Assembly (NCBI GenBank): GCA_013042105.1
Contig: JABDQU010000122.1
Location: forward strand, 1-45,793
Reading direction: 5' to 3'
DNA length: 45,793 nt
Source of the DNA: Boseongicola sp.
GTDB lineage: Bacteria; Pseudomonadota; Alphaproteobacteria; Rhodobacterales; Rhodobacteraceae
Of this stretch, positions 24,534 to 36,108 are shown one piece after another. Position 1 is the first letter of the stretch; each line of letters starts with the position of its first letter. Both the position numbers and the translations under genes were made by a program. The notes under the pieces were generated by a model, which saw only the letters and a list, made by a program, of their open reading frames with translations, did not search any database and had not been told where the DNA came from.

Positions 24534-24902
24534 TCAGACCTCCTTCGGCGTGGCGATATCCGCCTTAAGTTCATGGGGTTGCAAGGGATCCTTGAACGGA
24601 TTGCGATAAAGCCGGTCATGGCTTTCAACCCCGATCTCAATCGTGCAATCAGAGATGGGCCGCGCCACACAAAGCACAACATAACCATCCGAAATCTGGC
24701 GGTTATTCAAGGCAACCTGACGACGTTGATCGACCTGACCCTCGGTTAGCTTGGCCGCACATGTAATGCAGCCGCCATATTTGCACCCATAAGGCAGATC
24801 GACCCCTTGCTCGCGCAAAGTATCCAACAACGGACGCCGCGCATCGACCTCGAAAGTCGCACCCTCGCGGTTTGCAAGCGTTATGACCCGCGTCTCGCTC
24901 AC
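24534..24902 (-). CDS. Plant-type 2Fe-2S ferredoxin with C-terminal extension
   Basis: LPYGCKYGGCITC...VLCVARP. The GTG start at 24902 overlaps the SBP56 stop (GTGA). Confidence 0.88.
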   Translation of the reverse strand: MSETRVITLANREGATFEVDARRPLLDTLREQGVDLPYGCKYGGCITCAAKLTEGQVDQRRQVALNNRQISDGYVVLCVARPISDCTIEIGVESHDRLYRNPFKDPLQPHELKADIATPKEV

Positions 24903-26257
24903 AGCCAGATATCGCTCGTGCAATCCCCGCCCGGATAGCGCGTCTCGTGACAACGGCTCGGCCCGTTCGGCTCCTTACCAAAATCAACAATGAAATCCTC
25001 GTTGATCTTCATACCGCCATTTTCAACATCACAGTCAATCATCACCATGACCCCACCTTGCGTGCGGATCTCGGGGTAAAACTGGTTGTCCCACGTCGAG
25101 AAAAGCGAGGTCGTCACATAAAGCCGCTTGCCGTCCAGCGACAGCTGGAACATCTGCGGCCCGCCCGCCACCGGCACGCCATTCACTTCCGGTGCCTTGT
25201 TGAGCAATCCGCCCATCCACACCTGCCCTGTCAGCTTCGGATTATGCGGATCCGTGATGTCGTATTGGCGCATATCACCATGCAGCCAGTTGTTCAGATA
25301 GAGATACTTATCATCCATCGACACAAGGATCGCCGACATCACACCGGGAATTGGAATGGGCCATTCCGGATGCGGTTCATTCTCCACATCAATAATCTTC
25401 TCCCACTCCCATTTGCCCTCATCGGACTTCCAGAAATGGATCACATTCGCACTGAGCGCCGCCCCGCAGAACCCGTGCGTGCTGTCCGGGTCGTGGTGGA
25501 ACTTCACCTCCAGCGGGATCAATCCATCTTCGCCCAGATACATCGTCTCAATCGGCTCGCGCTTCTCAAAATCCCAAATGTGAAGACGTCGCCCGTATTT
25601 CAGATGCCCCACCTCTTCGAGATCAAACCCCGGCATAAACGTGTTCGGCGCAGCCCATTCCGACGACACCATCACGTTGTGGCGCGGCTGGTACCAGAAA
25701 TCATACCCGAACGGGATGTCCCCCATCGAGTTCTCCCAGCGTCCGATAATCTCGAAGTCCTTGTTCATATGGAGATACCCGCCGGGTGCCTCACCTTTTG
25801 CATCACCCAAAAACGAAATGATGATCTCAGAACCCAGACAATGCACCGTATGAGGTCCAGACAGATCCGCCTTCGCCTTGATCTCGGCCCCCTCAATCAC
25901 CTTATGCAAACGCGGCGCACGCGGGTCGGTCGCCGTATCAACCACGTGGATATTGTTCGACCGCACCCCTGGAACCAGCAGATACTTTCGCGACATCGAA
26001 CTGTCGTCATGACAGGACGAACAGGCATTCCACCCCATATGATGCAACTCGTCCCCAATGCCGGGCATTTCAAGACGGTGGATCACTTGTGAATACGTCG
26101 GGCTTTCAGGATCCGCATCAACGGTCGCAAGGTAATCCGGCTTTTGAATACCGGTGCCTGTGTAAATGGCGATCGTGTAAAGAAGCTTCTCTCGCGGAGC
26201 CTGAATGGCTTCAGCGGGACTCGCATAGCCCGGTCCGCAACACACCCCATCCATCAT
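24899..26257 (-). CDS. Selenium-binding protein SBP56/SELENBP1 family, probable methanethiol oxidase, cytoplasmic
   Basis: CGPGYASP, DELHHMGWNACSSC, GYDFWYQPRHNVMVSSEWAAP, NWLHGD, GGPQM, RYPGGDCTSDIW. No signal peptide. RBS GGAGG. Confidence 0.92.
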   Translation of the reverse strand: MMDGVCCGPGYASPAEAIQAPREKLLYTIAIYTGTGIQKPDYLATVDADPESPTYSQVIHRLEMPGIGDELHHMGWNACSSCHDDSSMSRKYLLVPGVRSNNIHVVDTATDPRAPRLHKVIEGAEIKAKADLSGPHTVHCLGSEIIISFLGDAKGEAPGGYLHMNKDFEIIGRWENSMGDIPFGYDFWYQPRHNVMVSSEWAAPNTFMPGFDLEEVGHLKYGRRLHIWDFEKREPIETMYLGEDGLIPLEVKFHHDPDSTHGFCGAALSANVIHFWKSDEGKWEWEKIIDVENEPHPEWPIPIPGVMSAILVSMDDKYLYLNNWLHGDMRQYDITDPHNPKLTGQVWMGGLLNKAPEVNGVPVAGGPQMFQLSLDGKRLYVTTSLFSTWDNQFYPEIRTQGGVMVMIDCDVENGGMKINEDFIVDFGKEPNGPSRCHETRYPGGDCTSDIWL

Positions 26258-26284
26258 CACGAACCTCCCTTGCGATGCGAACAG

Positions 26285-26305
26285 TAATCTCATAAATCGA
26301 GAATA
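26285..26305. promoter_or_regulatory. Candidate IclR operator in the 69-bp divergent promoter
   Basis: Imperfect palindrome TAATCTCATAAATCGAGAATA with a TCTC-N7-GAGA core. Confidence 0.4.
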
Positions 26306-28010: not shown

Positions 28011-28409
28011 CTAATCCCAACTGTCTTTCATGGCCCGCAAAGCATCGGCCCGACTTATCTGTCCGACAAGCCGGCCATCCTCAATGACCGGAAACCGCCG
28101 AAACGCGCTTTGCAGGAAGGCATTGGTTGCCGCAAAAATATCCAGTCCCGCCTCAAGTGTCTGCACATCACGCGACATATACGCCTCAACCCTGCCACCC
28201 CACGACCTGTAATAGCTCGCCTGCATCGCCGCCTTCAGACAGTCCTTCTTGGACAAAACGCCGACCAGCGTTCCGTCATCGGCCAGAACCGGCGCGCCGG
28301 AAATCCGGTTATCAAGCAGAATATTCATCGCGCGATTGATCTCGGTCTGCGGCGAGAGCGTGATCAACTCGCGCGTCATGTAATCTGAAACAAGTGCCAC
28401 ACGTTTCAT
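28011..28409 (-). CDS. Stand-alone CBS-pair protein
   Basis: DYMT...ISGAPV...LVGVLS and YMS...RRFPV..GRLVGQISRAD. The ATG overlaps the nqrM stop. Confidence 0.88.
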   Translation of the reverse strand: MKRVALVSDYMTRELITLSPQTEINRAMNILLDNRISGAPVLADDGTLVGVLSKKDCLKAAMQASYYRSWGGRVEAYMSRDVQTLEAGLDIFAATNAFLQSAFRRFPVIEDGRLVGQISRADALRAMKDSWD

Positions 28410-28576
28410 TTTGGCCCCTTCCCGCGACCAGCCTTGCAGACGCCGCAAGACAGACCCTTGTGGCAGGCCAGACCGCCACAACTGCCCTTGATCGGTGTCC
28501 GCCCTGCCAAAACGCCAACCGCAAGCCCTGCAATCGCAAGAAGCGAGACAACGAACGTCAGAATAATCGTTTCCAT
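28406..28576 (-). CDS. nqrM: Na+-NQR maturation factor NqrM (DUF539), 56 aa, absent from the ORF track
   Basis: Manual translation: METIILTFVVSLLAIAGLAVGVLAGRTPIKGSCGGLACHKGLSCGVCKAGRGKGPK. One TM helix, IKGSCGGL with Cys33, four Cys, RBS GAGGA, located directly after apbE. Confidence 0.9.
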   Translation of the reverse strand: METIILTFVVSLLAIAGLAVGVLAGRTPIKGSCGGLACHKGLSCGVCKAGRGKGPK

Positions 28577-28585
28577 TGGTTCCTC

Positions 28586-29548
28586 TCAGATCAGGACGTA
28601 ATCGGAAAACCGACCAGTCATAACATCGGACGTCTCATCACCATTTCGCACAATAAACAGAGCCGAAGCATTCAGCCGCCGTGCCAAAGCGATACCCTTC
28701 TCGACACCTGCCGCACAAAGCGCCGTGGCAAGCGCATCGGCTTCCTGTCCACTTGGCGCAAGCACCGAAACAGACGCCAGCGTCGTCGACGCCGGACGGC
28801 CCGACGTGGTGTCGATGATATGGCTTGTGCTGATCCTGCCACTTACACCATTGGCAGCATGCCCCGAAGTTGCCAAAGCCTGATCCCTCGGCGTCACCAG
28901 ACGATAGGGCTGGAAATCCAATGCGATCGGATCAGCCACCGCGCCAACCCATTCGCGCCCTCTGGGGTGGCGTCCCAGGACTTTTATTTCGCCACCGACC
29001 TCAATCATCGCGCTGTTTATGCCCTCGTCCACCAAAACCTCGGCCACCCGATCCAACGCATACCCTTTGGCAATCCCGCATAAATCCAAAGTCAAATCCG
29101 CCTCGCCCTTTCGCAAACCATCAGACGCAACCTCGATCTGTCGATACGACCCCAAGCCGCCCCTGATCGGCCCAAAACCAAACCGGGAAACAAGAGGTCC
29201 AACCGTTGGATCAAATGCGCCATCCGTCAGCCTTGCTATGCGCAAAGCCTCGCTGGTCACCGCACAAAGCTCCGGCGGCATCTCCGCAAACCCGACCCTG
29301 CGGATGGAATTGAAAACCGAAAGTGGCGATGTCGCGCGATAAGGCGACATTTGTTCATCGACCCGCCGAAATACAGCCTCCAGCTTCGGTCGCACGGCCG
29401 AAAGATCAACGATGCCACCGGCCGTGATGCGCCAACTTGATCCAAACGCAAGACCACCCTCGACCTGCAGGCCCTTTGCCCAGGCTTGCGTCGAACAAAG
29501 ACCCGCCCCGAGCAGCCCAAAGATCATCCCGCGTCGCGTCAAAACCAT
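28586..29548 (-). CDS. apbE: FAD:protein FMN transferase ApbE (Tat signal)
   Basis: TRRG Tat motif, GAFDPTVGPL, LDLCGIAKGY, EVGGE, LATSG, SHIID, ADALATA. Confidence 0.93.
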   Translation of the reverse strand: MVLTRRGMIFGLLGAGLCSTQAWAKGLQVEGGLAFGSSWRITAGGIVDLSAVRPKLEAVFRRVDEQMSPYRATSPLSVFNSIRRVGFAEMPPELCAVTSEALRIARLTDGAFDPTVGPLVSRFGFGPIRGGLGSYRQIEVASDGLRKGEADLTLDLCGIAKGYALDRVAEVLVDEGINSAMIEVGGEIKVLGRHPRGREWVGAVADPIALDFQPYRLVTPRDQALATSGHAANGVSGRISTSHIIDTTSGRPASTTLASVSVLAPSGQEADALATALCAAGVEKGIALARRLNASALFIVRNGDETSDVMTGRFSDYVLI

Positions 29549-29551
29549 CGG

Positions 29552-30772
29552 CTAAACTCCAAAATCATCGTTGTGAATGCTGTCCTCGTCCACGCCAAGG
29601 TCATCCAGCATCGACAGCACCGCACGGATCATCAACGGCGGCCCGCACAAATAATACTCACAGGCTTCCGGAGCCGGATGGTCCCCAAGATAGCGCTGCA
29701 AGGCGACTGCATGAACGAAGCCTACCGCGCCCGACCAGTTATCCGCGCCCTCCGGATCAGACAGTGCAACCGTCCAGTCGAAATTCGGGTGTGCAGCCTC
29801 CAGCGCATCGAACTCCTCGGCATAAAAGATATCCGCAGCACTGCGCGCACCATACCAGAAACTAATCCGGCGACCGGTCTTCTGGCGCTCCAACTGGTCA
29901 AAAATCATCGCCCTCAACGGGGCCATGCCAACGCCTCCACCAATGAAAACCATCTCGCGATCGGTATCTGATGCGCGAAACGTTCCGAAAGGCCCCGACA
30001 CCTTCACAGGATCACCTTCGCGCAGGGCAAACAACCACGAAGACACAATCCCCGGAGGCGCGTCCTTCACGGACGGCGGTGGCAGGGCGAGGCGGATATT
30101 GAGAACCAACCGTCCCGCCTCTGTGTCCTGCGGCCGATTAGAGATGGAATAAGCGCGCGTCACGTCCGTATCCGTCTCTACACTCAAACCCCGAAGCGGT
30201 GTCCACTCGTCCTGAAAGGCCTCCGGTATGTCGATATCCGTATACGCCAGCTCGAACGGAGGCGCAGTGATCTGCAAGAACGCACCGGCAACAACCTCGG
30301 GCCTGTTGCCCTCGGGAAGTTGCAGCACGATTTCCCGGATCAAAGGTGTGAGTTGCCGTGTCGATGCGACCTGAAGCATAAAAGCCTCTGCACCAAGCAA
30401 ATCCTCGTCAACGTTGACGTCCATATCGTTGCGCATCGTCACCTGACACGCCAAATGCGTGCCGTCGCGCAACTCAGCACGCGATAGCCGCGCAACCTCA
30501 ACCGGCAGAGCGTCCGGCCCCCCCTCCTCAATGCGCACCCGGCACAGACCGCAAGTTCCGGCACCAGCACAGGCAGACGGCACAAGAACGCCGTTGTCAT
30601 TCAACGCCGTCAGCAACTTCTGACCCGTCATGGCTTCAATCGTCTTGTGACCATTCACCGACAATCGCACCTGCCGCGCAGGCATCAAAAACGCCCTTGC
30701 GCCAATGACCAATCCGGTCAGCACACACACCAGCACGATCAGAAATACACTGCCCGAAAGGATATTGATCAC
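29552..30772 (-). CDS. nqrF: Na+-NQR subunit F (NADH dehydrogenase, 2Fe-2S/FAD)
   Basis: N-terminal [14 protein letters not shown]...[29 protein letters not shown]. Confidence 0.93.
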
Positions 30773-31368
30773 AAACCGATCCTCCCAAGTGCCGTAAACC
30801 CAATAGACATCAAACCGGTTACCAGAAACGCACTTCCCAGACCCTGCAAACCCTGTGGGATATCGCTGTATCTCAGACGCTCACGGATCGCCGCAAAAGC
30901 AACAATCGCCAAAGCCCAGCCAGCCCCGCTGCCGAACCCGAACACGACAGCCTCGGCGAAATCGTATTGGCGTTCCACCATGAAAAGACTGCCCCCAAGA
31001 ACGGCGCAATTCACGGTGATCAGAGGCAGGAAAATTCCCAAAGCGCGGTAGAGACGCGGGACAAATCGGTCAAGGAAAAGCTCAAGAATCTGCACCATCG
31101 CAGCAATCACGCCGATGAATGTGATCAGCTTCAGATAGCTCAGATCGACATCCGGCAGCCCCGCCCAACTCCAGGCACCTTCCAGCAGTATACTGTTGAA
31201 AATCAGATTGTTGACCGGCACCGTGATCGACTGAACGACGATAATCGCCAGCCCAAGCCCGAAAGCCGTCTCCAGACGCTCGGAAACCGCCAAAAACGTG
31301 CAAATCCCCAGAAACGAGGTAAGCGCAATGTTTTGATGAAAGATCGAGGCAACAAGAAGCTCTGTCAT
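30769..31368 (-). CDS. nqrE: Na+-NQR subunit E
   Basis: [37 protein letters not shown]. Start at ATG 31368. Confidence 0.93.
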
Positions 31369-32018
31369 CGCTTTGCCCCAATCTTCACAAGCGACAGCTT
31401 GGGCGTCTCGACCTGCTGGCTCCAACGCGACCGAATGGCCCAGATCAGCGCGCCGATGATAAAGAACGCACTTGGCGCAAGCTGCATCAATCCCAAGGGC
31501 TCAAACCAGCCCTCCTCTGATACCGGCACAAACACCGTGACCCCAAGAATTGCACCGGTCCCGAAAAGCTCGCGAATAGTTCCGATCAGAACAAGGATCA
31601 GACTGTATCCAAGCCCATTGCCCAATGCATCCAGAACCGAGGGCCCGACCGGGTTGCGCATAGCAAATGCCTCAGCCCGCCCCATTACCAGACAATTCGT
31701 CACAATCAGCCCCACGAAGACCGACAACTGACGGCTTATCCCGAAGGCATAGGCCTTCAGAATTTCGTCAATAACCACAACCATCGAAGCGATAATCACG
31801 ATTTGCACGATCAACCGAATGACGTTCGGAATATGATGGCGGATCAGGCTGATCGTGGCAGACGACAAACACAGCACAGCCGTAAGAGCGGCCGACATAA
31901 CCAATGCAGTGGCCAGCGACGTGGTGACCGCAAGCGCCGAACAGATACCCAGAATTTGTAGTGTGATCGGGTTCTGATCGATCAATGGCCCCGTCAGATA
32001 CGTCAGCTTCTTCGTCAT
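31365..32018 (-). CDS. nqrD: Na+-NQR subunit D
   Basis: [41 protein letters not shown]. Start at ATG 32018. Confidence 0.93.
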
Positions 32019-32019
32019 C

Positions 32020-32820
32020 TCAAAGCCCCTCCTGCCGCAAACGCTCAAGGAACGGACCAAACCCATGATCTCCCAGCCAGTAGCGCAACATGTTGCTCAC
32101 GCCATTGCTCGTCAGGGTCGCACCACTGATGCCGTCCACTTCATGGGGTCCGGTGCCCTGTCCGCGCACCACCGAGATCACGATCTGTCCGGTCTCATCA
32201 GCGACTTCCTTACCGGGCCACAATGCCTGCCATTCGGGTGTCTCAACGCGCGCACCAAGGCCCGGCGTTTCGCCCTGTTCGGTGATCGTCAGCGCGGCGA
32301 CAGTCCGCAAATCCGCCTCCAGCGCCAGCATAGCGCGCAGCGTGGACTGATACCCCGACCCGCTGACCGGCAGCACGACCAGAAGCAAGTCACCATCACG
32401 TTCCAGCAAATATACCGGCGCCAGATTTGCGCGCCGTCCAAGTCGGGCAACATCCAGTTCGCTCGGGATAGCAACGCTTTGCTCGGGGTCCGACGCAGCG
32501 GTCTGCATATTGAACTCAGCCGGATCGCGCCCGCTGACAAATGTCCCCGAACTCAGATCGACAAGGCGCGTCTCCAAAGCGTCAACGCCCAACTCCTCCA
32601 TCACCGAGCGCATCCCCGGCAGCGCATCAATCATCCGCGCCATGCGGGCTTCCCGCTCGGCGGCCAGATGTGCCTCCTGCAAAGGCTTCAGGGTCACCGA
32701 GGTGATCGACACCAGAATCGAACTGATCAACGCCACCAGAATTGCGACGCCAAACACTTTCACCCGATCATCGTTCGGGCGCGCCAGAAAGCCCCGCCAT
32801 ATCGTCACCGGGTTAAGCAT
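32020..32820 (-). CDS. nqrC: Na+-NQR subunit C (periplasmic FMN-binding)
   Basis: N-terminal [27 protein letters not shown] flavinylation motif. Confidence 0.92.
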
Positions 32821-33604
32821 GACGTCTCATTTCGCGCCGCGCATGGATCAGGATCACCACGTGATCTATCAATGGTGCAAAGACACCGGACATCAGCGCG
32901 GCAAAGACCATCGCCTCAGCGGTCGGCGCGCCCGGCGGCGAAAACACTATGACAAGCCCCCCCGCCAATGCGCCATAAATCCAGCGCCCGATCGGCGTCG
33001 CAGCCGCTGAAATCGGATCGCAAACCAGAAAAACAAGAGCGAAAGCCATCGCCGTCGCAACGGTGACCGGTTCCATCTCCGCGCCGCGCAATGCCAATAA
33101 AACCGCAGACGCGATGATAGCGCCCACAAGCACACGCCACGAAATCAATCCCATTAAGAGCAATAAAACCGCCCCCGGCACCGTCGCGACAGCCAACGCC
33201 GTGGTGGACTGGCGCAATTGCAACTCAGGAAAGGAAATCAAAAGCAAGGACAAGGCAACTGCCGCAGGTTGGACAAATCCAAAGCCACGCCCCCCGAAGA
33301 CCAGCTCCCCCAAAATCACACCCAATGACACTGCAAACACGATCTGCCAGATCGCAATTTCGGGCGGCAGCACGACGGCCACGATAAAAGCCGTCGTGAC
33401 CCCATGAAAACTCAAAACGCGGCGGCGAAGCGTTGCGAAAATCCCCTCCCACACAAGCGCTGCTACCAATGCAGCCACCAAATTTAACGCAAATCGCTCA
33501 GGATCAGCGGTCGCCACAACTGCCAAAGGCGCAATCAGCGCAACGCACTGCGCGATCGTCACGCCACCGACACTGCGAGGCGACAAGTGATCGATGCCGA
33601 TCAC
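32813..33604 (-). CDS. nqrB: Shortened Na+-NQR subunit B (NqrB/RnfD family), lacking the FMN-attachment loop
   Basis: WEGIFA, PP...WQ, VFGGRG, ISWR, DPISA...GRWIYG, FAPLIDH. Only 263 aa and no SGAT motif. Confidence 0.8.
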   Translation of the reverse strand: MIGIDHLSPRSVGGVTIAQCVALIAPLAVVATADPERFALNLVAALVAALVWEGIFATLRRRVLSFHGVTTAFIVAVVLPPEIAIWQIVFAVSLGVILGELVFGGRGFGFVQPAAVALSLLLISFPELQLRQSTTALAVATVPGAVLLLLMGLISWRVLVGAIIASAVLLALRGAEMEPVTVATAMAFALVFLVCDPISAAATPIGRWIYGALAGGLVIVFSPPGAPTAEAMVFAALMSGVFAPLIDHVVILIHARREMRRHA

Positions 33605-34842
33605 GCCGCGTCCGCCATCAGATCATCCAGAACCAGACGCAAGAGAACATCATACCGCGACCCGCTGGTGCAATGCCGGGACAATGCGGCAACGTCTTCT
33701 TCGATCAACGCAAGGCAGCCCAGACGCTCTGCGGTTTCGCTATCTCCAATGCTCAAGGCACGCAAAAGCGGCACCGGCAGGATATCGGGGGCAAGCGCAT
33801 GATCAAGCGCCCCGGTCGGAACCAGCGCAGACGGAATAGCCGCCCGATTTGCCTGCCAAAATCGTTTCCGTTGCCGGACCGGCCCATCGGGCACCGTAAT
33901 CTGACTGTGAAACCGTCCCAGATACGCCGCATCTCGTCCAGTCAACGCATCCCCTGCCAAAGCACAAGCGCGCTCTTCTGGTTGGCAAACCTCAGCTATT
34001 TTCGCGCCCAAACTGGTCCGCACAAGCCTCGCCGGCAATGCACCTGTGCCGGAAATCGCAATCACGCGATCCCCCATAAACAGCCCCGTCTCAAACAAAT
34101 GGCCGATGGCAATGACGTCCTGATAGCCAATCGACCAAACCTCCATTCCAGCCCGAACCGGGCGCAATCGGTCAATATGCGTGCCCGACAAACCAGCCGC
34201 CATGGTGCCGCTGAAGCTCGCAACCTCTAGCCGATCATCGCCCTTTGAAAGCGGCGCACCGGGCAACTGACACAGGAAAACCGGCCCCTCGGTCAGCTTG
34301 GTAAGCAGCGCAAGCCCACGGGCAAAAACGTCTTCTTTGCCAGCCAGCACAATACGCGGATCAGGCGCAAGTGGACTGGCATGACAAGCATTCACAAACA
34401 CAGCTTCCGGCCTTGCGTCAGGCACTGGCGTGCGCCCGAAAGGCCGCGTTCGAAATGCACTCCACATCCCGCTGCCTTGCAACACCTCGCGAATTGCAAA
34501 GCCATCGTCTGCGCCAACCGGCACCACTCTAGGAGAGTGAGCCACCTCGCCGTCCGAGGTCAAAATGCAAGCCGACAACGTTCTGCGCGCGCCAAAGGAA
34601 AGCGTGGCCACGTTGCCCGAAATTGGCGAAACGTATGCCACCTCTCTGTGCCGACGATCTCTAAACAAGACCTGACCAGCCTGCACACGCTCGCCTTCTT
34701 CAACCTCGAATTTCGGACGCAGCCCGGGCATATCGCTGCCCAGCAATGCGACAGATACCGCGCCCTGTTCTTCAATGACGTCCTGCTTGGGCGCACCCTG
34801 ACGTGTCGCCTTTTCACCCCGTTTTATGTGGAAATGTTTCAA
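33601..34842 (-). CDS. nqrA: Na+-NQR subunit A (divergent)
   Basis: V..GERVQAGQVLF.D, SPISG, RTRPF, PLAPDP, PVPLLRAL..GD, LGCLALIEED. Probable TTG start at 34842; an upstream in-frame TTG lies at 34857. Confidence 0.85.
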   Translation of the reverse strand: MKHFHIKRGEKATRQGAPKQDVIEEQGAVSVALLGSDMPGLRPKFEVEEGERVQAGQVLFRDRRHREVAYVSPISGNVATLSFGARRTLSACILTSDGEVAHSPRVVPVGADDGFAIREVLQGSGMWSAFRTRPFGRTPVPDARPEAVFVNACHASPLAPDPRIVLAGKEDVFARGLALLTKLTEGPVFLCQLPGAPLSKGDDRLEVASFSGTMAAGLSGTHIDRLRPVRAGMEVWSIGYQDVIAIGHLFETGLFMGDRVIAISGTGALPARLVRTSLGAKIAEVCQPEERACALAGDALTGRDAAYLGRFHSQITVPDGPVRQRKRFWQANRAAIPSALVPTGALDHALAPDILPVPLLRALSIGDSETAERLGCLALIEEDVAALSRHCTSGSRYDVLLRLVLDDLMADAA

Positions 34843-34930
34843 TGCGTCACCCTTCAAACCGCGTGTCGTTCAATAAGACCTGCGGGCGTGTCGTTGCCGT
34901 TGAATATGTCCGAGCCAATCCAACTTTGAA

Positions 34931-34944
34931 TTGATCCACCTCAA
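34931..34944. promoter_or_regulatory. FNR/FnrL/FixK-type box between nqrA and the cytochrome gene
   Basis: TTGAT-CCAC-CTCAA, one mismatch to TTGAT-N4-ATCAA. Confidence 0.7.
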
Positions 34945-35004: not shown

Positions 35005-36108
35005 ATGATCCGCTCAGCAATCGCCCGCCTGACGCTTGTATTCGCGTTTTGCCTCGCCTTGATCGCCGCCCCCGCAACCGCACAAGACGAACAATCCGAC
35101 GCCGCGCGGCTGGTTACGATCATGGAAGCCTGGCTCGCCTCCCCGCACAACGACCGCACATCCGAAGCCTTCACCCACTGGGACGAGGACGGCGAAATCC
35201 CCGGCGGATGCGCAGTTTGCCACTCCAGCCTTGGCGCCGTGGACTGGATGCGCACGCCGGATGCGACCCCCGGCGTTATTGATCATCCCGTCGCAACAGG
35301 CACCACTGTCGATTGCGCGGTCTGCCACAATTCGGCAGCCGCTAACCTGACGTCGGTTCCCTTCCCTTCAGGAACCTCAATTGACAGCTTCGAATCTTCC
35401 GCAGTCTGCGCCGTCTGCCATCAGGGCCGGTCCTCGGTTCAGACGGTCAACGCCGCGACCGAAGGCATGGAAGACGATGTTGTCAGCGGCGATCTCGGCT
35501 TCATCAACACGCACTACGCGCCGTCTGCTGCGACCCAGATGGGATCAACCGTTCAAATCGGCTTTGAGTATCCGGGCAAGGTTTACAAAGGCCAGTTCAC
35601 ACATGTGCCTGACCTGAACACCTGCACCGATTGCCACCGTCCGCATTCTCTGGAAGTCCAGCTCGACAGCTGCACGGCCTGTCATCAGGGCGTCGCCTCC
35701 TTCAAGGACATCAGAATCTCTCCGATGGACTTCGATGGGGACGGCGTCACGACCAACGGTATCTCAGTGCCCATCGCAGCCCTGCACGCCAGACTGGAAG
35801 ACGCCATCGAACTCTACGCCACAGAGATCGTTCAGGCCCCTGTCGTGTATTCCTCACACGCCTATCCATACTTCTTTGCCGACACCAACGCCGACGGCGA
35901 AGCAACCGACGACGAGGCAATCTACCCCAATCGCTATCAAAACTGGACACCCCGGCTTTTGAAGGCCGCCTACAACTATCAGTTGGTGGCAAAAGACGGC
36001 GCGATCTATACGCACAACCCGCACTATGCGCTTCAACTGCTCTACGACAGCCTTGAAAGCCTCTCGGAAAGTGTCGAGGTCGATATGACAGGCCTCATCC
36101 GACCATAA
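35005..36108 (+). CDS. Periplasmic pentaheme cytochrome c
   Basis: Sec signal (ATA-Q) and five CxxCH motifs: CAVCH x3, CTDCH, CTACH. RBS AAGGA. Confidence 0.88.
   Translation: MIRSAIARLTLVFAFCLALIAAPATAQDEQSDAARLVTIMEAWLASPHNDRTSEAFTHWDEDGEIPGGCAVCHSSLGAVDWMRTPDATPGVIDHPVATGTTVDCAVCHNSAAANLTSVPFPSGTSIDSFESSAVCAVCHQGRSSVQTVNAATEGMEDDVVSGDLGFINTHYAPSAATQMGSTVQIGFEYPGKVYKGQFTHVPDLNTCTDCHRPHSLEVQLDSCTACHQGVASFKDIRISPMDFDGDGVTTNGISVPIAALHARLEDAIELYATEIVQAPVVYSSHAYPYFFADTNADGEATDDEAIYPNRYQNWTPRLLKAAYNYQLVAKDGAIYTHNPHYALQLLYDSLESLSESVEVDMTGLIRP

Follow-up and report, generated by a model that had tools for sequence, protein, structure and literature searches.

Organization of the short-NQR gene cluster

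The window, a stretch of Boseongicola sp. DNA of 45,793 nt, contains a six-gene nqrABCDEF operon with NqrF as the NADH input, as in Na+-NQR. The genes nqrA (33601..34845; 414 aa), nqrB' (32813..33604; 263 aa), nqrC (32020..32820), nqrD (31365..32018), nqrE (30769..31368) and nqrF (29552..30772) are followed on the same reverse strand by apbE (28586..29548), encoding a flavin transferase, an nqrM-like gene (28406..28576; 56 aa) and a gene for a stand-alone CBS-pair protein (28011..28409), the final gene of the operon. A gene for a pentahaem cytochrome c (35005..36108, forward strand; 367 aa), the predicted electron acceptor, diverges from nqrA, and an FNR/FnrL-type box (34931..34944) lies in the spacer between the two. 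The gene nqrB' encodes a short NqrB from which the domain for covalent FMN, the quinone helices of the N-terminus and most of the proposed NqrB Na+ residues are missing, and the operon is referred to here as the short NQR.

NqrC, NqrD, NqrE and NqrF passed the NCBIfam cut-offs, whereas NqrA and NqrB' did not. The best NCBIfam matches of NqrB' were NqrB models with scores far under the cut-offs, and its Pfam domain content is PF03116 only. In the source genome (84% complete), nqrB' was the only PF03116 gene found, a search of the contigs with the single NqrB' protein gave one locus, and a complex I 49-kDa subunit is encoded.

NqrC carries an SGAT flavinylation motif whose T235 corresponds to V. 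cholerae T225; the position is Thr or Ser in 93/93 short-operon homologues, and with ApbE encoded in the operon NqrC is predicted to bear covalent FMN at this site. The gate and Fe-S residues of NqrD and NqrE follow the available text of PMC12901251. The Fe-S cysteines and gate leucines are kept in both source proteins, as are D133 of NqrD and E95 and P114 of NqrE. Among homologues, NqrD L26, L107, C112 and D133 occur in 89/89 and C29 in 88/89, whereas NqrE L23 and C26 occur in 87/87 and E95, P114, L115 and C120 in 86/87. NqrF keeps its [2Fe-2S], FAD and NADH residues, with R210, Y212, S246 and F406 in 81/81. The first-pass annotation of the window had described the SGAT motif of NqrC, the Fe-S cysteines of NqrD/E and the cofactor motifs of NqrF as intact, and all of these were found.

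NqrA's C-terminal loop, which wraps the N-terminal helices of NqrB (PMC9325719), is about 22 residues shorter than in canonical NqrA (medians of 31 vs 53 residues around the NqrB N-terminus). The basic patch that anchors NqrF is kept, with Arg at positions 40, 61 and 85 in 78, 86 and 76 of 92 sequences, respectively.

The neighbourhoods were compared over the 115 short loci left once 6 partial matches and 16 cuts that were duplicates or off target had been removed; 79 of these had at least 3.2 kb upstream and 73 had 6 kb downstream. The gene apbE lies downstream in 69/73 loci. The CBS gene is present in 72/73 and in 0/22 canonical loci of the family, and one gammaproteobacterial canonical locus also carries it; as a guess, the CBS protein is a nucleotide-sensing regulator. 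The nqrM-like product has a hydrophobic helix, a GSCGG motif and further Cys, and resembles the nqrM of canonical loci. Such open reading frames pass a Cys-motif test in 59/76 loci, and those of the short lineage gave no match with PF04400 or NCBIfam. Some subclades are without GSCGG yet have Cys pairs. A loss of nqrM, as the blank PF04400 result in three short-type genomes might be read, was rejected since the small nqrM-like frame was found. Elsewhere in the window, a protein of the SBP56 family, weakly matching methanethiol oxidase (MtoX) under the cut-off, is encoded at 24899-26293 (reverse strand), divergent from a putative IclR-like regulator; in locus L021, this pair of genes again lies after the operon.

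The short NqrB and its missing sites

The nqrB' frame starts with GTG, has zero internal stops, and overlaps the nqrA stop by 4 nt (33601) and the nqrC start by 8 nt (32820), so that the intact 263-aa frame overlapping both neighbours in the first-pass annotation is confirmed by the coordinates. In the alignment with V. cholerae NqrB proposed there, residues 46-127 of NqrB' match 137-218 and residues 139-262 match 278-412; the match begins at 137 and skips the FMN domain, in agreement with the claim that the region of the FMN-Thr and much of the N-terminus are missing. A linker of 13 codons (residues 127-139; 33188..33226, reverse strand) stands where an FMN domain of 57-61 residues would be. 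The alignment-based interval P217-A279 comprises 61 residues in V. cholerae, 57 in 24/24 canonical (long) Rhodobacteraceae NqrB and 13 in 103/103 distinct short homologues. The motif [ST]GA[ST] was found in the linker of 0/103 short homologues, which bears out the reported lack of SGAT. The QSTT sequence was considered as an alternative flavinylation site and rejected because it is not conserved among the short homologues. The AlphaFold model of NqrB' (pLDDT 94) superposes on NqrB over 258 residues (Z 27.9, rmsd 2.5 A).

Residue numbers were bridged by aligning one canonical NqrB of the Rhodobacteraceae to PDB 7XK3, and residue roles were taken from the available text of PMC10643135, PMC9325719, PMC9293633 and PMC12901251. 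The comparison excludes R43, P172, G185, N391, F393 and P395, whose labels carried wrong numbers. T236 and its FMN domain are gone in 103/103 short NqrB, R209 is retained in 0/103 and G141 in 16/103, G140 is outside the five commonest residues, and neither E157 nor F159 ranks among the commonest; T236 with its domain, R209, G140, G141, E157 and F159 are invariant in the 24 canonical proteins. The quinone-site residue N156 is lost, and the N-terminal helices AH-I/II, which close the quinone site (PMC10643135), are absent from the alignment. The ubiquinone site formed by AH-I/II, G141, F159, N156 and the NqrA C-terminal loop is not present in the short NQR. The loss of the FMN domain and of most quinone-pocket residues supports the earlier proposal that the canonical route to quinone is broken.

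The proposed Na+ residues D52, E157, E274, I371, R372 and N375 are lost, whereas the proposed channel residues F338, F342 and D397 are retained in 66, 77 and 102 of 103, respectively. The acidic residues noted earlier in DPISA and PLIDH are present as D196 (= D346) and D247 (= D397). Position 346 is Asp in 100/103 and Glu in 2 more, and P347 is kept in 102/103. In V. cholerae the DP aspartate binds riboflavin (PMC9293633, PMC10643135), and its presence alone is therefore no sign of Na+ handling. The FGG-G motif is retained in 101-103 of 103 (F194, G195 and G198 in 103/103). Of the riboflavin-site residues, T162 occurs in 78/103, N200 in 37/103 and N203 in 47/103; the source NqrB' has T, G, Q and D at T162, N200, N203 and D346, respectively, and one subclade of 23 sequences holds all four together. 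An acidic residue (E100 in the source) replaces K191 in 95 short NqrB. In the canonical Rhodobacteraceae NqrB, Glu stands at D346 and Phe at Y378 in 24/24 (L026, L027, L141-L160).

The partly kept riboflavin pocket is not obviously needed by a pure scaffold and is the main loose end. It could be used if the FMN of NqrC docked deeper on NqrB' and reduced the retained riboflavin, with electrons passing to quinone or a membrane acceptor and the cytochrome serving as a side branch. The near-invariance of D346, P347 and the FGG-G loop, the joint retention of all four ligands in the subclade of 23, and the flavin sampling of a vacated site proposed from AlphaFold models of two-subunit Nqr/Rnf-like complexes (PMC11334425) are consistent with such a short circuit. 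It is nonetheless considered unlikely, as parts of the quinone site are gone from NqrB' and NqrA alike, N200 and N203 are replaced by G and Q in the source protein, and linkage to a haem protein (see below) is nearly complete.

Distribution, selection and phylogeny

Among the matches listed (120 of 127), about 105 were 229-297 aa long; the named sources of short NqrB include Boseongicola, Yoonia, Aestuariibius, Hoeflea and Tranquillimonas. In a survey of 401 Rhodobacteraceae genomes, with six candidates scored per genome, 49 contained a short NqrB (two of them, G196 and G293, with both forms) and 54 the long form only. Beyond the source genome, short NqrB was found in 2/400 class-wide and 2/300 phylum-wide genomes, all of the same class, and one protein with a short linker is named Granulosicoccus. 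Some copies of the short-NQR operon, complete or partial, are carried on plasmids. Shinella sp. HZN7, Nitratireductor sp. OM-1 and Pseudooceanicola algae are among the carriers of the operon. Many canonical Rhodobacteraceae NQR operons also sit on plasmids.

Intact short-NqrB frames persist to about 30% identity, with 29 near-invariant positions. The dN/dS of NqrB', estimated by NG86, a crude method on GC-rich DNA, had a median of 0.35 (range 0.12-1.11; 25 disjoint pairs), and the medians for NqrA and NqrF of the short operons were 0.37 and 0.31, compared with 0.12, 0.15 and 0.10 for NqrB, NqrA and NqrF of canonical operons (8 pairs). These values indicate purifying but looser selection that is operon-wide. 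Decay of the operon with a dead NqrB would fit the dN/dS of 0.35 against 0.12 and the few broken loci (L023, L086 and plasmid pAMI8 of Paracoccus aminophilus, cut by Tn3). This explanation is extremely improbable, as the junction of 13 residues is fixed in 103/103, 29 positions are near-invariant, frames are intact at low identity, the fold is confident, every partner gene is kept, and the raised dN/dS is common to all subunits of these operons, not to NqrB alone. The first-pass annotation had read the complex as rewired rather than decayed and had proposed a dN/dS comparison across short homologues; a junction that recurs throughout the family, the median of 0.35 and the kept maturation genes uphold that reading. 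In pAMI8 (L204, 6667-13037), nqrA-B'-C are severed by the Tn3 element and no cytochrome gene is annotated in the vicinity.

An unrooted FastTree of NqrD+E+F was built from 74 rows, taking every other locus and adding 21 new regions, in each case where complete; with support 1.0 it separates the 46 short operons from the 28 canonical ones. By its sequences, the short NQR is a separate conserved lineage, not an allele of one strain. A recent deletion in a local canonical operon was rejected on the deep split and on the presence of both forms in G196 and G293. In the tree of the NqrB core, where two RnfD serve as outgroup, NqrB' groups with NqrB despite the RefSeq name RnfD; descent from RnfD was rejected in view of this tree, the gene content of the operon and the HMM scores.

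The short forms lie within a clade of 92 (support 0.92) that includes 21 proteins with a full-length loop. R209, which we take to be an FMN contact, occurs in none of the 21, G141 in one and a loose SGAT-like motif in five, whereas R209 is kept in 45/52 NqrB outside the clade. The existence of long-loop relatives without R209 and G141 suggests that the FMN and quinone sites decayed first and that the loop was deleted later. Likely intermediates with a long loop, a degenerate flavinylation motif and no R209 are P0109, P0116, P0303, P0309, P0317, P0321, P0322, P0329 and others. One cluster among the full-length-loop proteins is named Myxococcota.

Two further arrangements were observed. A variant from another alphaproteobacterial family (L183, 8864-15000, G541; L203, G665) has a linker of 20 residues, a degraded FGG-G loop and a substituted D346; no nqrA was detected in L183, which has a tetrahaem cytochrome about 2 kb upstream. 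NqrA and NqrB' are fused in four proteins of 671-692 aa (P0276, P0285, P0290 and P0295, one of them checked with Pfam), which fits a lasting scaffold of A and B'.

The pentahaem cytochrome and its partners

The cytochrome has a signal-peptide-like N-terminus, five CxxCH motifs, whose His are conserved in 73-74 of 74 sequences, and six further His invariant in all 74. The CxxCK active-site haem of NrfA is absent from it, five CxxCH being present instead. Its model (pLDDT 83) gives a middling match to the fold of NrfA and OcwA (Z 9.3), and its profile matches NrfA at E 2e-4; Foldseek against PDB gave no match at E<=0.001 and phmmer gave weak matches only. With respect to the catalytic Arg/Tyr/His triad of NrfA, the comparison extends to the overall fold. 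The protein may serve as a carrier with all haems bis-His, or this cytochrome of NrfA-like fold may itself be the reductase. The search gave 1246 homologues, those of Chloroflexi including longer forms that resemble tandem doubles.

The cytochrome adjoins 71 of the 79 short loci (67 divergent, 4 in line) compared with 0/22 canonical loci, and 42 of the 45 short loci derived from genomes; the loci are related and the metagenome loci partly redundant, so these counts overstate independence. Genome-wide, a cytochrome homologue occurs in 62/401 genomes, namely 44/49 short-form, 1/54 long-only and 17 others, and none was found in 5/49 short-form genomes. Among the eight loci without the adjacent cytochrome, one has an 11-haem cytochrome, four have flavocytochrome c with c3-type cytochromes and one has an EB_dh-family protein; no haem protein was seen near the other two of the 79 (L113 and L122).

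Eighteen genomes contain the cytochrome without a short NqrB. In 14 of these it adjoins a ferric-reductase/FAD/NAD membrane protein of roughly 490 aa (Pfam on 4; conserved His in an alignment of 15, one of them a second copy from G088). The remaining four have PepSY-FNR with DUF2271 and apbE (1), an nqrA fragment at a contig end (1) or neither (2). A PepSY/DUF2271 neighbourhood recurs on a Defluviimonas plasmid, a few genes from the cytochrome. Cytochromes linked to the reductase fall into a single clade (support 0.987) nested among the NQR-linked ones and thus represent one swap event, not 14. The two-gene module of cytochrome and ferric reductase/FNR, found in 14 genomes without a short NQR (L164-L182) and often with an FNR box, is apparently uncharacterised in itself.

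Ferric-reductase-type FNR and PepSY-FNR families move electrons outward from NAD(P)H. Both types of system are described as NAD(P)H-to-outside conduits (PMC8238504). The families of these substitute partners argue against a device running in reverse, in which a periplasmic donor would reduce the cytochrome and NqrC, and the Na+ gradient would drive electrons through NqrD/E and NqrF to NAD+. The direction is not fixed by sequence and RNF/NQR cores are reversible (PMC12174285), which leaves room for such a device; flavocytochrome c reductases adjoin four loci and control by FNR suits a low-oxygen electron sink, so that reverse operation is given a low probability and electrons would rather run from NADH outward.

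FNR boxes and a probable low-oxygen setting

The box at 34931..34944 has one mismatch to the FNR consensus TTGAT-N4-ATCAA (PMC5398030, PMC2908626). Boxes with at most one mismatch were found in 47/70 spacers between nqrA and the cytochrome, compared with 0.2 in base shuffles and 1/22 canonical NQR promoters. They also precede 12/19 cytochromes not linked to NQR. The window contains six FNR-like boxes (1.4 expected), four of which (34931, 39852, 42939 and 43008) gather in 35-43 kb, preceding the nqr/cytochrome pair, RND-ABC-trxC genes and a PEP synthase gene; this suggests that 35-43 kb is a low-oxygen island. PEP synthase is also encoded near several short-NQR loci.

The divergence of cytochrome and operon around a single box also allows that the two share a promoter only. 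Co-regulation by FNR could account for the adjacency without direct electron transfer, with NqrC-FMN reducing another periplasmic acceptor such as free flavin, a metal or another protein; the boxes of 12/19 cytochromes away from NQR and two cytochromes (L171 and L177) without a conduit gene nearby are compatible with this. Four loci in which the cytochrome is on the same strand, immediately ahead of nqrA, speak against it, as do the various haem proteins that occupy one place and the various conduits that pair with one cytochrome, and this explanation is quite unlikely.

Proposed electron route and its significance

The short NQR is probably a low-oxygen conduit from NADH to a periplasmic cytochrome, in which NqrA and NqrB' would serve as scaffold and NqrD/E may still pump Na+. 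Of the electron path, the outward half appears to be kept: NADH would reduce the FAD and [2Fe-2S] of NqrF, from which the electron would pass to the [2Fe-2S] of NqrD/E and then to NqrC-FMN, as in NQR. This order follows partly from what is known of the family and partly from the conserved residues described above. As NqrB' offers neither an FMN nor a quinone site, the electrons of NqrC-FMN likely go to the pentahaem cytochrome; this step is deduced from gene linkage and from the two kinds of partner substitution. A complex prediction with NqrB', NqrC and the cytochrome (score 0.00, mark 0.32) gave no answer either way. NqrA would anchor the mobile NqrF head as part of the scaffold, and FNR would likely induce the operon when oxygen is low, and the result would be a sink for NADH independent of quinone. 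The likely electron destination, comprising the divergent cytochrome, its substitutes and the FNR box, is new beyond the first-pass annotation.

The route of Na+ through NQR is contested between passage via NqrB (PMC10643135) and passage via NqrD/E only (PMC12901251 and the Rnf work cited there). Under the alternating-access model of NqrD/E in PMC12901251, the short NQR would still pump Na+; under the NqrB channel model of PMC10643135, it would pump none. Given the conduit, the chance of Na+ pumping through NqrD/E is about even. The full reading, a Na+-pumping NADH:cytochrome c oxidoreductase with energy conservation by NqrD/E only, forming a quinone-independent, FNR-induced branch that originated as the FMN site of NqrB was lost step by step, is more doubtful; if true, NqrB would be dispensable for ion pumping. 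Since the gates and acidic residues of NqrD/E are kept and the NqrB FMN and most channel residues are lost, this natural enzyme bears on the dispute.

In about 12% of the sampled Rhodobacteraceae genomes, the short NQR would be an outlet for electrons at low oxygen that is so far unstudied, giving many marine members a second NQR lineage apart from the canonical one, and a large unannotated cytochrome family gains a likely role. Databases label the subunit RnfD or the operon plain NQR, so that metabolic models would wrongly count the short NQR as an NADH:quinone reductase. No description of a short-NqrB operon was found in the titles and abstract openings searched, mainly of open-access papers, and the available text of PMC4014512 and PMC12052999 makes no mention of a short NqrB. 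Clusters of this kind may appear under plain NQR in the supplementary tables of Meheust 2021 and Huang 2024.

Comparison with known systems

The Na+-NQR of V. cholerae (PDB 7XK3, 8A1T; PMC9325719, PMC10643135, PMC12901251) shares with the short NQR the gene order A-F with apbE and an nqrM-like gene, the NqrB fold, the cofactor residues of NqrF, NqrD/E and NqrC, and the NqrD/E gates. The short NQR differs from it in lacking the NqrB FMN domain and AH-I/II, in the loss of G141, F159, E157, E274, D52, I371, R372 and N375, in the shorter NqrA loop, and in the addition of the pentahaem cytochrome, the CBS gene and the FNR box. The FMN of RnfD/NqrB was described as strictly conserved in a 2025 review (PMC12174285), whereas the short NqrB has it deleted.

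The same review describes the Rnf of Methanosarcina acetivorans, in which an RNF/NQR core has a multihaem c-type cytochrome as its expected outlet, as here. That system takes electrons from ferredoxin via RnfB and has an RnfC subunit, whereas the input of the short NQR is NqrF. RnfB, RnfC and an RnfD-type subunit are not encoded in the operon, which has NqrA and NqrF, and it is not an Rnf. NrfA/OcwA-fold cytochromes (PDB 1QDB, 6I5B, 3UBR) resemble the pentahaem cytochrome in their five haem motifs and C-terminal helical bundle; unlike NrfA, the latter has all motifs as CxxCH, and with the six additional invariant His every haem could be bis-His, although the protein may still include a catalytic site.

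In the two-subunit Nqr/Rnf-like systems (Meheust 2021, PMC8238504; Huang 2024, PMC11334425), the NqrB/RnfD homologue is also without the flavinylation Thr, the NqrC-like partner is flavinylated by ApbE, and a one-way flow from NAD(P)H to the outside is proposed, as here. The conduit of those systems is a B-like domain joined in one protein with an NAD-binding domain, and A, D, E and F are absent, whereas in the short NQR B' is unfused, six subunits are kept and D/E/F are the likely conduit. NqrB' is without the fusion of PF03116 to a C-terminal PF00175 that defines the two-subunit systems (PMC8238504). The short NQR would work like the outward half of NQR and is in aim like the two-subunit systems; since it has neither the NqrB FMN and quinone site of the Na+-NQR nor this fusion, it is a member of neither.
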